In this document: positions 1,988-7,710 of the stretch, piece after piece
Numbering within the stretch: position 1 is the stretch's first letter
Layout: each line of letters starts with the position of its first letter
Assembly: GCF_035565275.1 (NCBI RefSeq)
Contig: NZ_DATMST010000063.1
Location: forward strand, 2,537 to 66,536
DNA: 64,000 bases
Direction: 5' to 3'
DNA from: Sphingopyxis sp.
GTDB lineage: Bacteria > Pseudomonadota > Alphaproteobacteria > Sphingomonadales > Sphingomonadaceae
Translations under genes and position numbers: made by a program
The notes under the pieces: model-generated
Told to the model about the DNA's origin: nothing
Databases searched by the model: none
The model's input: the letters and a program-made list of their open reading frames with translations, nothing else

Positions 1988-2051
1988 TGTTTATGCTGCT
2001 TCTTTTGATACGCAGCATGAGGAGGGGGTGGGGGCAAGTCAAGCAGCCCTC

Positions 2052-2083
2052 TTCGTCGCTCCGGATCAAGTCCGGAGTGACGA
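2052..2083. repeat. Half copy of palindromic repeat family A
   Basis: Hairpin CGTCGCTCCGGA-TCAAG-TCCGGAGTGACG; 2061-2083 is identical over 23 bp to 4283-4305 inside truB. Confidence 0.8.
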
Positions 2084-2128
2084 GAGTTTGATGATTGGCG
2101 GAGGCCAGCGAAGGCGTTATCGCACCTC

Positions 2129-2731: not shown

Positions 2732-3260
2732 CCGGCTCTACATCGAACTCGCCGACGGCGGTCTCAAGCTCGTCAAGCTGAAGGAAGGGCATCGCGAGGC
2801 GCTTCGTGCTGCCTGCGCTGCCGATGCCGATATCTGGCCGATCTATTCGTCGAGTTTCGATCCCGATCATTTCGACACGGCGTTCGATACGCTGATCGGG
2901 CACGTCAGCCGCATGCCCTACGCGATTTTCGATGGCCAGACGCTTGTCGGTATGACCGCCTATCTGCGTCCCGACGTGTCGGCGCAAACGGTCGAGATCG
3001 GCAACAGCTTCCTTCATCCCGACGCACGTGGAACGGGGTTCAACGGCCGGCTCAAGAAGCTGATGATCGATCATGCGTTCGCGGCCGGTATCCGCCGGAT
3101 CGAATTCCGCATCGACGAACGCAACAAGCGTAGCCAGGCTGCGGTCGCCAAGCTCGGCTGTACCAAGGAAGGGGTGTTGCGGTCAGAGCGCATCACCTGG
3201 ACCGGCCATGTCCGCGATACCGGGCTCTGGTCGCTGTTGGCGGACGAGTGGCGGCGATGA
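2724..3260 (+). CDS. GNAT (RimJ/RimL-like) acetyltransferase
   Basis: ATG 2724 overlaps the tdk stop; [44 protein letters not shown]. Confidence 0.88.
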
Positions 3261-3321
3261 ACTGCATGGGACGCAAGGGTCAGCACGGGTTCAGACTCGG
3301 TCTGCTATCCGCGCCGTCACC

Positions 3322-3741
3322 ATGAAACAGAAACTCGCTCTCTCCCTGGCCGCCTTGCTGCTTCCCCTTTCGGCAGCGGCGGCCATCGAGCCGACCGACG
3401 CGCCCGCAAGGGAACCGCGCGCGCTCGGCGTCGAATCGAGCATCGTCTTCCCGAGCGACAGTACGATCCGCAACTGGCAGGCCGACCGCGATCGCGGCAT
3501 CTGGATCGAAGGGCGGCGCGGCGAATGGTATTATGGCACCTTCGCCGGCTTCTGCCGCGACATCGATTTCGCGCAGGCGATCGGCTTGGAAACGCGCGGC
3601 GCCGGGCGGCTCGACAAATTCGCGTCGATCGTTGTGCGGGGCGATCGCTGCCAGCTATCGTCCTTCGTCACGTCGGCACCGCCGCCGACGAAGGAAGAAC
3701 GCAAGGCCGCGCGCGAAACCGACAAGACCGCGGAAAATTGA
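3322..3741 (+). CDS. Secreted hypothetical protein (DUF6491-like)
   Basis: Signal peptide MKQKLALSLAALLLPLSAAAA; two Cys; IRNW...WYY...C..IDFA..IG...LDKF pattern. Confidence 0.6.
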   Translation: MKQKLALSLAALLLPLSAAAAIEPTDAPAREPRALGVESSIVFPSDSTIRNWQADRDRGIWIEGRRGEWYYGTFAGFCRDIDFAQAIGLETRGAGRLDKFASIVVRGDRCQLSSFVTSAPPPTKEERKAARETDKTAEN

Positions 3742-3772: not shown

Positions 3773-4729
3773 ATGAACGGCTGGATCATTCTCGACAAGC
3801 CTGTCGGCCTTGGCTCGACGCAGGCGGTGGGCGCCGTGAAACGCGTGTGCCGCGAAGCCGGGCTGGGCAAGGTCAAGGTCGGTCATGGCGGCACGCTCGA
3901 TCCGCTGGCGTCGGGGGTGTTGCCGATCGCGCTCGGCGAAGCGACAAAGCTGTGCGGGCGGATGCTCGACGCGAGCAAGATTTACGACTTCACCCTGCAA
4001 TTCGGTGCGCAAACCGCCGGGCTCGATGCCGAGGGCGAAGTCGTGGCTACAAGCGACGTTCGGCCGACGCTGGCCGATGTGGAGGCGATACTGCCACGTT
4101 TCACCGGTCCGATCGAGCAGGTGCCGCCCGCTTTTTCGGCGATCAAGGTTGGTGGTCAGCGGGCCTATGACCTGGCGCGCAAGGGCGAGGCGGTGGAGAT
4201 GAAAGCGCGCAGCGTCACCATATATTCCCTTCGTCATGCCGGACTTGATCCGGCATCCATGCCCACCGACGAAGAATGGACCCCGGATCAAGTCCGGAGT
4301 GACGAAGGTGGGGGAGGGCCGCTCGACTCCATCACCCTCACCGCCCGCGTGTCCAAAGGCACCTATATCCGCAGCCTCGCGCGCGATATCGCGCACGCCG
4401 TCGGCACCGTCGGGCATGTCACGATGCTCCGCCGCACAAAGGCGGGGCCGTTCGGGCTCGAGCGGGCGATTTCGCTGGACAAATTGAACGCATTCGGTCA
4501 AGGCGCCGCCCAATCAGAAATATTTCTGCCGCTTGAGGCAGGGCTGGTCGACATCCCGGCTCTGAACCTTTCCCCGGAAGCGGCAGGGGCGATCCGTCAG
4601 GGTCGCGTCTGGACCGGGGGGTGCACGGATGACGGGCTCTATTGGGGAAGGGACAGCGACATGCGTCCCGTCGCCCTGATCGAGGCTTTGGCGGGAACGC
4701 TGAAGGTTGTCCGCGGCTTCAATCTGTAA
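3773..4729 (+). CDS. truB: tRNA pseudouridine(55) synthase carrying an in-frame palindromic insertion
   Basis: [47 protein letters not shown]. Confidence 0.97.
4229..4307. repeat. Full palindromic repeat family A inserted in frame in truB (encodes [27 protein letters not shown])
   Basis: CTTCGTCATGCCGGACTTGATCCGG...CCGGATCAAGTCCGGAGTGACGAAG; same 15-bp cores as the intergenic copy at 7619-7710. Confidence 0.9.
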
Positions 4730-4755: not shown

Positions 4756-5025
4756 ATGTCGATTACCGCCGAGCGCAAAACCGAAGTCATTAATGACAAT
4801 GCCCGCGCCAAGGGCGATACCGGTTCGCCGGAAGTTCAGGTCGCGATCCTGACCGACCGCATCAATACGCTGACCGCCCACTTCAAGGCGCACCACAAGG
4901 ACAACCACAGCCGCCGCGGCCTCCTCATGATGGTCAACAAGCGCCGCAGCCTCCTCGACTATCTGAAGAAGAAGGATGAGGCCCGTTATTCGGCGCTGAT
5001 CGCGAAGCTGGGTCTTCGTAAATAA
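4756..5025 (+). CDS. rpsO: 30S ribosomal protein S15
   Basis: [27 protein letters not shown]; 89 aa from ATG 4756. Confidence 0.98.
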
Positions 5026-5034
5026 GAATTTCTG

Positions 5035-5058
5035 GCGGCCCCGGATTTCCGGGGCCGC
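5035..5058 (+). terminator. Stem-loop after rpsO (terminator or processing/stability hairpin)
   Basis: GCGGCCCCGGA-TT-TCCGGGGCCGC, 11-bp stem, no clear U tract. Confidence 0.5.
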
Positions 5059-5218
5059 TGTCATATTGGTCCCGTGCAATTGTGCCGGGCCGCAGGGCCG
5101 CTCCCGCATCCGGCGGGACCGCCATCGGGGCAGACAGACGCCCTACACCGCCCCGGGCCGGATTGCCCGGAATCAGAGGCCCCGCCCGGCATAGGGCCCG
5201 GCGGGCGAAGGAAACCAC

Positions 5219-7531
5219 ATGTTTGACGTGAAAAAAGTATCGATCGAGTGGGGCGGTGAAACGCTGACGCTCGAAACGGGCAAGGTTGCCCGTCAGGCCG
5301 ACGGCGCCGTCATCGCGACGCTGGGCGAAACGGTCGTCCTGTGTGCCGTCACCGCCGCCAAGAAGGTCAAGGAAGGGCAGGATTTCTTCCCGCTCACCGT
5401 CCACTATCAGGAAAAATATTCGGCCGCCGGACGCATTCCGGGCGGCTTCTTCAAGCGCGAACGCGGCGCGACCGAAAAGGAAACGCTGGTTTCCCGCCTG
5501 ATCGACCGCCCGATCCGCCCGCTGTTCCCCGAAGGTTTCTACAACGAAATCAACGCCATTGCCCAGGTTCTGAGCTATGACGGCCACAACGAGCCCGATA
5601 TTCTGGCGCTGGTCGCCGCGTCGGCCGCGATGACGATTTCGGGCGTCCCCTTCATGGGCCCGATCGGCGCCGCGCGCGTTGGCTACATCGACGGCGAATA
5701 TATTCTGAACCCGACCGACGCACAGGTTGCCGAGGGCGATCTCGACCTGGTCGTCGCCGCGACGTACGACGCGGTGATGATGGTCGAATCCGAAGCCAAT
5801 GAGCTGTCGGAAGAGGTCATGCTCGGCGCCGTCCTGTTCGCGCACGACGCGTGCAAGGAAGTCGTCAAGGCGATCGTGAAGCTCGCCGAACAGGCCGCCA
5901 AGGATCCCTGGGCGATGGCCGAACAGGCTGACCTGAGCACCGCCAAGGACAAGCTGAAGAAGCTGATCGGCAAGGATATTGCCGCCGCCTACAAGCTGAC
6001 CGACAAATCGGCCCGCTCGAACGCGCTGAACGAAGCCCGCGGCAAGGCCAAGGAAGCCTTTGCCGATGCGGCTCCGCAGGATCAGCTCGCCGCGTCCAAG
6101 CTGGTGAAGAAGCTGGAAGCCGAAATCGTTCGCGGCGCCATCCTGAAGGACGGCAAGCGCATCGACGGTCGCAAGACGACGGAAATTCGGCAGATCGTCG
6201 CCGAAACGCACTTCCTGCCCCGCGCGCACGGCTCGGCGCTGTTCACCCGCGGCGAAACGCAGACGATTGCCACGGCAACGCTCGGCACCAAGGAAAGCGA
6301 ACAGATGGTCGATGGCCTGAACGGCCTGTCGTACCAGAACTTCATGCTCCACTATAACTTCCCGCCCTATTCGGTCGGTGAAGTCGGCCGCTTCGGCGCG
6401 CCGGGCCGCCGCGAAGTCGGTCACGGCAAGCTCGCATGGCGCGCGCTGCACCCCGTGCTGCCGACGAAGGACGAGTTCCCCTACACGATCCGCCTCACCA
6501 GCGACATCACCGAGTCGAACGGCTCGTCGTCGATGGCGTCGGTCTGCGGCGGTTCGCTCGCGATGATGGACGCCGGCGTGCCGATCAAGCGCCCCGTCTC
6601 GGGCATCGCGATGGGCCTGATCCTCGAAGGCAAGGATTATGCGATCCTGTCGGACATTCTGGGCGACGAGGATCACCTCGGCGACATGGACTTCAAGGTC
6701 GCGGGCACGTCCGAAGGCATCACCACGATGCAGATGGACATCAAGATCGCGGGCATCACGCGCGAGATCTTCGAGGCCGCGCTGAACCAAGCGAAGGAAG
6801 GCCGCGCGCACATCCTCGGAGAGATGGCGAAGGCGCTTGGCGAAACCCGGAGCGAATTGTCGGCGCACGCACCGCGTATCGAGACGATGCAGATCGACAA
6901 GTCGAAGATCCGCGACGTCATCGGTACCGGCGGCAAAGTGATCCGCGAGATCGTCGCGACCACCGGCGCGAAGGTCGACATCGACGACGAAGGCCTGATC
7001 AAGATTTCGTCGAGCGACCTCGACCAGATCGAAGCGGCGCGCAAGTGGATCAGCGGCATCGTCGAGGAAGCCGAAGTCGGCAAGATCTATGACGGCAAGG
7101 TCGTCAACCTCGTCGATTTCGGTGCGTTCGTTAATTTCATGGGCGGCAAGGACGGTCTCGTCCACGTCAGCGAAATCGCCAACGAGCGCGTCGAAAAGGT
7201 CGCCGACGTCCTGAGCGAAGGCCAGGAAGTCAAGGTCAAGGTCCTCGAAATCGACCAGCGCGGCAAGGTTCGCCTGTCGATGCGCGTCGTGAACCAGGAA
7301 ACCGGCGAAGAACTCGAAGACACCCGCCCGCCGCGTGAACCTCGCGGTGACCGCGGGCCGCGCCGTGATGGCGGCGACCGTGGCGATCGCGGCCCGCGTG
7401 GCGGCGGTGGCCGTGACCGTGGCCCGCGTCGTGATGGCGGTGGCGAAGGTCGTGGTGATCGTGGCCCGCGCCGCGAACGCAGCGAAGGTCCGGAAGACCA
7501 GGGCCACGTGCCCGACTTCCTGAAGGACTAA
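5219..7531 (+). CDS. pnp: Polyribonucleotide nucleotidyltransferase with an R/G/D-rich C-terminal tail
   Basis: [37 protein letters not shown] and S1 domains. Confidence 0.99.
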
Positions 7532-7554: not shown

Positions 7555-7585
7555 AAAGGGGGTCGCGAATGCGGCCCCCTTTTTT
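7555..7585 (+). terminator. Intrinsic terminator after pnp
   Basis: AAAGGGGGTCGC-GAAT-GCGGCCCCCTTT followed by a T run. Confidence 0.85.
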
Positions 7586-7618
7586 ATGGCGGCTACGGGA
7601 TGGGAAGCGGACCTGTCT

Positions 7619-7710
7619 TTCGTCATCCCGGACTTGATCCGGGGTCCCGCTTGAGATCTAAGCTGGTGGACGCGCAAAAAGCGAGATCCCGGATCAAGTC
7701 CGGGATGATG
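7619..7710. repeat. Full intergenic palindromic repeat family A
   Basis: CGTCATCCCGGACTTGATCCGGG ... CCCGGATCAAGTCCGGGATGATG. Confidence 0.88.

Follow-up and report, generated by a model that had tools for sequence, protein, structure and literature searches.

The truB gene of a Sphingopyxis sp. (NCBI RefSeq assembly GCF_035565275.1; the stretch of 64,000 nucleotides analysed, positions 2,537 to 66,536 of contig NZ_DATMST010000063.1, is referred to here as the window) contains, without any break in its reading frame, an 81-base palindromic element. We are confident that this element is a dimer of CGTC-tagged repetitive extragenic palindromes (REPs), that it is ancient, and that it is orthologous to an insertion in S. 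alaskensis. The loop of TruB in which it lies is occupied by at least nine classes of repeat among the Sphingopyxis species compared, and at least 58 changes of loop class are required by a tree of the locus. On balance we consider it probable that the account given below is correct as a whole, that is, in the identity of the element, in treating the encoded peptide as a passenger, and in the turnover of the loop. In what follows G000 denotes the genome from which the window is taken and L001 its truB locus; other G and L codes denote the genomes and loci with which they were compared.

The REP dimer in truB

Taken as a whole the truB element is one long inverted repeat, with arms of 33 nt each at 4228-4260 and 4276-4308 which are 88% complementary and separated by a gap of 15 nt. 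An earlier note on this DNA, made from the sequence alone, had placed a 79-bp inverted repeat at 4229-4307, and that description stands. Each half of the element is in turn a small hairpin of its own (Table 1). An unpaired CGTC tag is found on both units in truB and also in the consensus of 45 full copies of the dispersed repeat to which the element belongs, here called family A; the truB element was the top nhmmer match to the family-A profile in its contig (70.5 bits).

In the truB frame the element is read as RHAGLDPAS...TPDQVRSDE, the left unit supplying R154-H-A-G-L-D-P-A-S162. On its own the left unit forms a hairpin of -9.0 kcal/mol as single-stranded DNA (z score -3.4). The stem of the right unit is weakened in G000 by a GGG>GAG change (S for G), its own hairpin having a z of -1.2, and is intact in most orthologues (CCGGGGTGACGA). 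The 87-nt stretch which includes the whole element folds at -54.7 kcal/mol as RNA (z -8.6) and at -32.3 kcal/mol as single-stranded DNA (z -8.3), and none of its shuffled versions matches this fold. No direct repeat of the kind that marks the target-site duplication of a MITE was evident at the junctions, TTCC/CTTCGTCA...TGACGAAG/GTGG, where the empty sites are too divergent to define one.

Based upon HMMER alignment, residues 1-156 and 188-289 correspond to residues 11-164 and 169-280 of the E. coli TruB chain, and the 31 residues in between (157-187) stand for only four to five residues (165-168) of the E. coli protein, at a beta-hairpin turn. A low-confidence AlphaFold2 model (26-sequence alignment, mean pLDDT 56), which was too poor for a fold search and was used for secondary structure only, places strands at 144-154 and 186-193 on either side of a poorly predicted segment. 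Between fixed anchors TruB of G000 has 69 residues versus 45-48 in nine other families of the order, and the protein is 297-300 aa long in insert-free congeners as against 318 aa here. The earlier note had described an in-frame read-through between the IYS strand and the SKGTYIRSL motif, in a segment much shorter in canonical TruB, and had proposed an alignment of related TruB proteins for presence or absence of the insert. The frame is indeed unbroken through all 318 residues, the segment is shorter elsewhere by the amount just given, and orthologues lacking the insert were found. Its new loop of ~26 aa is correct as to the insertion but too large, the net gain over insert-free congeners being ~18-21 aa.

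About 41 Sphingopyxis species carry this element, in the same frame and at an identical codon boundary, and 10 others carry a sub-variant of it. The insertion is old, not recent, and common to ~50 species of the genus. An Arg-His pair occurs at the same turn, without any repeat, in TruB of E. coli and of the outgroup genome L027.

Family A in the window and the genome

The 15-mer CCGGACTTGATCCGG or its complement occurs five times in the window (2061, 4239, 4283, 7628 and 7689), against a chance expectation of 0.24 per window estimated from shuffles, and in 0 of 100 shuffles were five occurrences obtained. This agrees with the earlier observation that truB shares 15-mers with the copy at 7619-7710; the identity of 23 bases with a half copy at 2061, claimed at the same time, can be read directly at 2061-2083. 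Neither of the two findings named there as speaking against the proposal, namely a loop conserved at the protein level in orthologues lacking the palindromic DNA and 15-mers repeated nowhere else, was made.

Within the 4.54-Mb assembly there are 97 exact matches to the 15-mer and 58 paired full elements, the latter arranged as plus-then-minus dimers with a core spacing of mostly 43-44 nt; a profile search with nhmmer returned 80 family-A loci. The stem dinucleotides beside the core are complementary in 85 of the 97 genomic arms and take the covarying forms TC/GA (44 arms), CC/GG (31) and TG/CA (9), which argues that the hairpin of the single arm is the conserved unit. Family A is present in 23 of 24 congeners and near-absent from 16 genomes of other families, three of which have 2-6 matches.

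Among 43 dispersed copies the CGT-CAx frame (CGT CAT being Arg-His) is free of stop codons in 34, as against 6 and 1 for the other frames, and truB uses this sole generally stop-free frame of the repeat. In nine of the 80 family-A loci of G000 at least one frame stays open for 180 nt to either side, and a coding context was recognized in truB alone. Spanning open reading frames (ORFs) were judged by G+C content at third codon positions (GC3) and by reading of their translations. On this basis all candidates in G000 other than truB were rejected, being antisense, spurious arginine-rich frames or cases in which the repeat lies ahead of the real start, which leaves truB as the single real coding sequence among the 80 loci. 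Six candidates with long ORFs in relatives proved to be start-proximal or spurious frames and were not convincing.

Repeat classes in the TruB loop

truB was taken from ~130 Sphingopyxis genomes (~128 species) and the loops were assigned to classes by peptide patterns and inspection. Class A, that of the window, is found in 41 species. It is accompanied by A2 (RHPGLDPGSR..SGTPDQVRGDE; 10 species), A3 (RHAELVSAS..PWT.KQVQGDE; 4 species), B (SIRHPGEGRD..DPGLRRGD; 6 species), C (SVRPELVEGP..GPSTSSGRA; 3 species), D (QILPTCGEVAARSADGGG..PLHHPADGPPPRAGEE; 9 species), D2 (AILPGTGRGT..PVPLHHPADGPPPRAGE; 5 species), E (SPLPFRGGAGGG..PHPNPSPEGEG; 6 species) and E2 (KPLPFRGGVGVGA..PSPEGEG; 6 species). 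Six loops fall outside every class and ~20 sites are empty. Classes C, D and E have no sequence relationship to A and lack the CGTC tag. The nine classes share a single codon boundary, preceded by (S/A)-L and followed by G-E-G-L.

The insert classes fold strongly, with mean z scores of -4.7 to -9.4, as against -0.25 for empty loops and +0.4 to +0.7 for remnants of A. Remnants, which retain the element ends only, were seen at L012 (CTTCGTCAC-TCCCAG-GGTGACGAG), L071, L097, L083, L090 and L070, and nested composites at L016, L004/L065, L129, L282 and L294. In two draft assemblies (G100:C24:27482-28350 and G016:C535:2919-3684) there is a stop or a frame change at or near the loop, which could reflect a genuine break in the gene or misassembly at the hairpin.

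Class D is itself a dispersed family, with 48-49 copies in G072 and G019 and 13 matches to its core 14-mer in G000. The D elements of G000 are ~130 nt long (ATCCTCCC..GGGGAGGTGGCAGC..CCCCTCCACC..GGGAGGAT) and adjoin family-A elements in intergenic DNA (C204:9825, C312:5797 and C326:3821), so that unrelated repeat families cluster as mosaics. The complete genome G082 (4.9 Mb) has its sole D copy in truB (C1:2237661-2237804), besides one fragment of 35 nt.

Outside Sphingopyxis, 24 genomes belonging to other genera of the Sphingomonadaceae were compared, of which 18 have an insert in the truB loop; among 86 genomes from nine further families no insert was found. Types D, D2, E, A3 and C as well as CGTC types recur in truB of these other genera.

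Two further arrangements were noted in the family. At L282 (G238:C1:2231600-2232850) the loop has ~80 extra residues, made of the serial units RHPEFISGS, KQVQYDD, NQVQHDD and SVRPELVEG, and the frame is open. In an Erythrobacter-like clade (L283, L286, L287, L290, L291 and L294) there is a conserved loop peptide of ~25 aa, AFATTAGRPDPYDP..APLELA, with no obvious palindrome; in one member, L294, a CGTC dimer (RHPREGGDP..DSRLRGND) lies just before the AFATTAGRPDPYDP peptide and resembles the published case of E. litoralis.

Turnover of the loop

The number of class changes was derived from a maximum-likelihood DNA tree of truB minus the loop, rpsO and the 5' part of pnp, which comprised 104 taxa and had 54 well-supported branches. 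Sister pairs of unlike class are strongly supported for L011 (A) and L128 (D2), L092 (E2) and L094 (D), and L008 (A) and L093 (E2). Further unlike pairs with strong support are L006 (A) with L082 (E2), L068 (A2) with L123 (D2), L003 (A) with L085 (D) and L013 (C) with the remnant L071; the window locus L001 (A) is itself paired with L059 (A2).

In the very close pair L011/L128 five differences fall within the 15 nt immediately 5' of the insert and none in the preceding 60 nt. Compared with one truB copy of D, dispersed D copies are up to 85% identical and the truB copies of other species 82-85%; since these values overlap, common descent of the truB D copies is not proven. Short terminal hairpins (CCCCACTTGTGGGG) are common to the D copies in truB, which in this are unlike the dispersed D copies of G000. 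The flank GGGGAGGGG has the sequence of the terminal hairpin arm found in E and D elements.

Constraint on the arms and on the peptide

Nucleotide diversity per codon position was determined for 23 species with A inserts of equal length. At positions 1, 2 and 3 it is 0, 0.04 and 0.06 in the left arm and 0.10, 0.11 and 0.18 in the right arm, and it rises to 0.28, 0.36 and 0.46 in the spacer and to 0.27, 0.39 and 0.54 in the eight codons 3' of the element; the values for truB as a whole are 0.08, 0.07 and 0.29. The arms are thus near-frozen at each of the three codon positions, next to a drifting spacer, and conservation tracks the palindrome, not the codons. We presume that the arms are maintained as DNA sequence, whether through gene conversion by dispersed copies or through selection for the hairpin or the nuclease site. 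The peptide is probably a passenger which the protein tolerates, in a loop where constraint at the protein level is slight.

GIY-YIG nuclease genes

Two small GIY-YIG genes are present in G000, on C86 and C198 (Pfam GIY-YIG 45.8-49.6 bits). The first (C86:3256-3474) is flanked by family-A arms, at 3192 before its start and at 3572 and 3615 after its stop, the whole region being 3103-3629, and its orthologues in G046 and G082 have family-A flanks of 30-31 nt. The second (C198:2600-2960) is bracketed by a sister CGTC repeat with arms CGTCGCCCCCGCGAAGGCGGGGGC. At C174:40048-40257 the C-terminal third of a GIY-YIG gene lies between the arms of a family-A element (A2), in what looks like a decayed autonomous unit. 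Among eight complete congeners, 14 or 15 of the ~17 small (93-124 aa) GIY-YIG genes have flanking inverted repeats of 16-33 nt, counts which are approximate because the wrong strand was chosen at several loci. Where the strand was correctly chosen, no flanking repeats were found for three proteins of 622-623 aa, which are probably UvrC, or for four genes of the "FWxY" class.

Ssn nucleases are small GIY-YIG proteins which cut single-stranded DNA at CGTCAT-headed hairpins flanking their own genes, in a repeat-ssn-repeat layout that the authors likened to an insertion sequence; sphingomonads are among the hosts named (Nat Commun 2025; 16:2388, PMC11893778). The CGTC type of repeat matches the recognition motif of the Ssn family, and by domain and repeat flanks the GIY-YIG genes of G000 would be Ssn-like. 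The link between nuclease and repeat fits the published Ssn picture and is not new.

A RAYT transposase was rejected as mobilizer, as a search of the 95%-complete G000 assembly for the Y1 transposase domain PF01797 gave no match at E <= 0.01 and the control genomes did match. Rfam returned only sub-threshold matches to microRNA precursors, which are artefacts of any long hairpin.

Neighbouring genes and other copies

The gene order truB-rpsO-pnp is kept across the genus, rpsO being found in 126 of 132 loci and pnp in 122 of 132. On the 3' side of pnp there is a terminator-like hairpin with a T run at ~7561-7586, then ~30 nt, then the family-A2 element of the window, which in following a gene occupies the usual location of a REP.

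Table 1. Positions of the truB element, its parts and related features in the window
Feature	Position	Strand	Evidence or remarks
truB coding sequence, 318 aa, frame unbroken, element inside	3773..4729	+	ORF translation; Pfam TruB_N 4e-46, TruB_C_2 3e-11; structures 1sgv, 1r3f and 1k8w matched
Whole element, 81 bases, encodes L153-G179	4228..4308	.	head-to-head dimer of two CGTC-tagged REP hairpins, tags outward
Left REP unit	4232..4259	+	tag CGTC 4232-4235; 8-bp stem ATGCCGGA/TCCGGCAT starting AT; loop CTTGA 4244-4248; tail CCA
Spacer, ~M-P-T-D-E-E-W	4260..4276	+	fast-evolving part between the two REP units
Right REP unit	4277..4304	-	CGTC tag on minus strand 4301-4304; plus-strand reading T-P-D-Q-V-R-S-D
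Intergenic full copy, subtype with inner stem CCCGCTT/AAGCGGG (family A2)	7619..7710	.	15-mer at 7628 and 7689; equals C63:10164-10239
Solo half copy, one REP unit	2046..2085	-	23 bases (2061-2083) identical to right arm in truB
rpsO (4756-5025) and pnp (5219-7531), directly 3' of truB	4756..7531	+	ORF list

Possible explanations

As to mechanism, we put forward a scheme which we regard as a reasonable guess, still short of probable. The TruB loop would have become a REP locus in an ancestor of the family. In its later turnover new elements would have inserted within or next to hairpins already in place, with in-frame deletions afterwards, and short patches carrying loop alleles would probably also have passed from one species to another. 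The intergenic mosaic clusters of REPs would be the analogue of such turnover.

Several observations weigh against the account as a whole or against parts of it. The mean pLDDT of the structural model is low, and the loop is taken to be exposed from the alignment with solved structures of TruB. The tree was drawn from the same locus as the loops it describes, and unresolved nodes can inflate the number of changes. The flanks within 180 nt are barely more alike among species of one loop class, and the 15 nt nearest to the insert differ by 0.305 between classes versus 0.244 within a class; flank effects as weak as these do not demonstrate either the exchange of alleles or insertion de novo. The synonymous conservation is strong and not extreme, the left arm ranking 21st and the right arm 60th of 310 windows. 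Finally, an NCBIfam search of the GIY-YIG proteins yields no name.

One might suppose that the loop is a true integration hotspot at which insertion occurs repeatedly de novo, the DNA attracting the machinery through the CTT CGT CAT run (Leu-Arg-His), a resident hairpin or the G-rich flank GGGGAGGGG, with the tolerance of the protein only permitting persistence. The concentration of so many classes at one codon boundary speaks for this, as do the nested insertions into resident elements at L016, L004/L065, L282 and L294 and the standing of truB as the sole coding hit of family A in G000. The repeat-free Arg-His turn of E. coli and L027 suggests that the CGTCAT motif may predate the element. 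The identity of the GGGGAGGGG flank with the terminal arm of E and D, and the tendency of the families to cluster, also count in favour of insertion de novo. We are nevertheless inclined to doubt a hotspot of this kind, in that G082 has a D element in truB with no other D copy to serve as local source, the terminal hairpins peculiar to the truB D copies suggest common descent of a truB allele, and CGTC tetranucleotides are far too frequent to account for one site. The solitary D copy of G082 is better suited to a history of few ancient insertions whose alleles have been exchanged by short-patch recombination, for example through transformation, or have persisted as long-lived polymorphism, the patchiness being due to recombination and loss. 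Boundaries, orientation and much of the spacer are common within a class across scattered species, the same types (D, D2, E, A3 and C) recur in other genera, the differences between L011 and L128 are concentrated next to the insert, and in Neisseria Ssn nucleases and their repeats modulate the integration of transforming DNA (PMC11893778). On the other side, the near flanks are on average not clearly grouped by loop class, a truB D copy resembles dispersed D copies no less than it does the truB D copies of other species, and exchange leaves the entry of so many families at one site unexplained. We consider such exchange quite possible, a little more so than the hotspot, and stop short of calling it probable.

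It is improbable, in our estimate, that the repeats are interchangeable because any strong stem-loop in the truB-rpsO-pnp RNA or DNA is useful in itself and is retained by selection, whether for RNA stability or processing, as a pause site or for the docking of a nuclease or other protein. Some strongly folding insert is present in ~80% of Sphingopyxis species and in 18 of the 24 genomes from elsewhere in the family, no such fold is seen in empty loops, the arms rather than the spacer are conserved at three codon positions, and REPs are generally thought to be RNA elements downstream (3') of coding regions (PMC3733652). Yet no insert is present in ~20 Sphingopyxis species, in six of the genomes from elsewhere in the family or in any of the 86 from other families, remnants without a hairpin persist, the right-arm hairpin of the window element is itself degraded, and translating ribosomes would unwind a hairpin in a coding region. 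Least of all can we credit that this is an ordinary variable protein loop which evolves at the protein level and in which the palindromy is incidental. The Erythrobacter-like peptide without obvious palindrome and the general variability in loop length could be cited in its favour; against it, the DNA belongs to a dispersed family of 80 loci, with identical 15-mers in intergenic DNA, its fold is far outside that of shuffled sequence, its conservation follows the palindrome and not the codons, and other loop classes such as D are dispersed repeats as well.

Relationship to known systems

The CGTC-tagged REP superfamily was defined by Di Nocera, De Gregorio and Rocco (2013, BMC Genomics 14:522, PMC3733652), who found it to be mainly alphaproteobacterial, with S. 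alaskensis and S. wittichii rich in REPs, and concluded that it is without a dedicated transposase. Like the truB element, its members have a terminal CGTC, an 8-bp stem starting from AT, a short loop, a CCA tail and an arrangement mostly in head-to-head dimers; TGTC or CCTC may stand for the tag, and stems of 8-9 bp with loops of 4-5 nt belong to the type. Family A shows the tag, the 8-bp stem with 5-nt loop, the high copy number and the mostly intergenic dimers. The stem and loop lengths of the truB unit bring it nearer to the definition of CGTC-2 than to that of CGTC-1. Additional file 3 of the same paper lists Sala_0541 of S. alaskensis, a tRNA pseudouridine synthase B of 318 aa, with a REP at residues 169-177 (WTPDQVRGD), and a CGTC-1 dimer at residues 164-190 of TruB of E. 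litoralis. The event is thus not new, contrary to what the earlier note had assumed. The S. alaskensis case was scored there as one REP of 9 residues, without comparison of species, and the paper has no account of repeat families replacing each other at one truB loop; according to its authors, genes of one functional class which contain REPs usually have them at different sites.

The earlier note had also likened the insertion to the repeat-to-protein process of Rickettsia. The Rickettsia palindromic elements (RPE-1 to RPE-10; Ogata et al. 2000, 2002, via PMC10969869 and PMC3733652) are likewise palindromic repeats inserted in frame into housekeeping genes, the loops added by RPEs being compatible with the fold of the protein; truB of R. 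conorii is reported to carry an RPE-1, and RPE-4 and RPE-6 are CGTC REPs (PMC3733652). As a kind of event the comparison holds. It fails in breadth, since RPEs are spread over dozens of unrelated genes in the reduced genome of an intracellular bacterium, whereas here one real gene of 80 loci is affected in a free-living host; in addition, the truB element has 81 nt as against ~100-150 nt for an RPE. The main oddity of the locus, the many unrelated repeat families in the same loop of related species, was absent from that note.

To the Ssn nucleases with their Ssn-related motif (SRM) or NTS repeats there is likeness in the CGTCAT-headed hairpin, in the single-domain GIY-YIG gene within its own inverted repeats, as found at C86, and in the pairing of repeat variants with distinct genes. 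The Ssn paper deals with the control of transformation in Neisseria, not with in-frame copies inside genes or turnover at a single site. REPINs with their RAYTs and BIMEs (Bertels and Rainey 2011, PMC3116915; Nunvar et al. 2010, PMC2817692) resemble the present case in their paired inverted REP hairpins with a spacer, in a single-copy gene flanked by its own REPs and presumed to encode the mobilizing or maintaining enzyme, and in mixed REP clusters. They differ in having a GTAG and not a CGTC tag and a Y1 transposase, which was not found here, a GIY-YIG gene being present instead; here, moreover, the cluster lies inside a coding sequence.

In the literature we did not find the nine-class loop, the 58 or more changes, the contrast between 18 of 24 and 0 of 86 genomes, the restriction to truB among genes, or the frozen arms with a drifting spacer. 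The new part seems to be the family-wide, multi-class and fast-turning occupation of one TruB loop.

Significance

Taken alone, the truB insertion is one more event of a documented type and adds little; the comparison among ~130 species, with dozens of changes at a single codon boundary of a conserved gene and a sharp limit at the level of the family, is of more use. As the site is orthologous and the frame obligatory, insertion events can be counted and dated, which bears upon how REP-type repeats choose their sites, replace each other and are maintained, with the Ssn nucleases as a candidate partner. For annotators and structure predictors there is also a warning in that length variation of TruB in this family derives from repeats. 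It is possible, if on present evidence rather doubtful, that the TruB turn is a genuine landing and exchange site for hairpin repeats at the DNA level across the Sphingomonadaceae, where resident CGTC/Ssn hairpins would be cut as single-stranded DNA and repair or recombination would swap in other hairpins or foreign alleles, giving a self-renewing in-frame cassette. If this is true, truB would be a natural reporter of the insertion, conversion and death of REP-type repeats.

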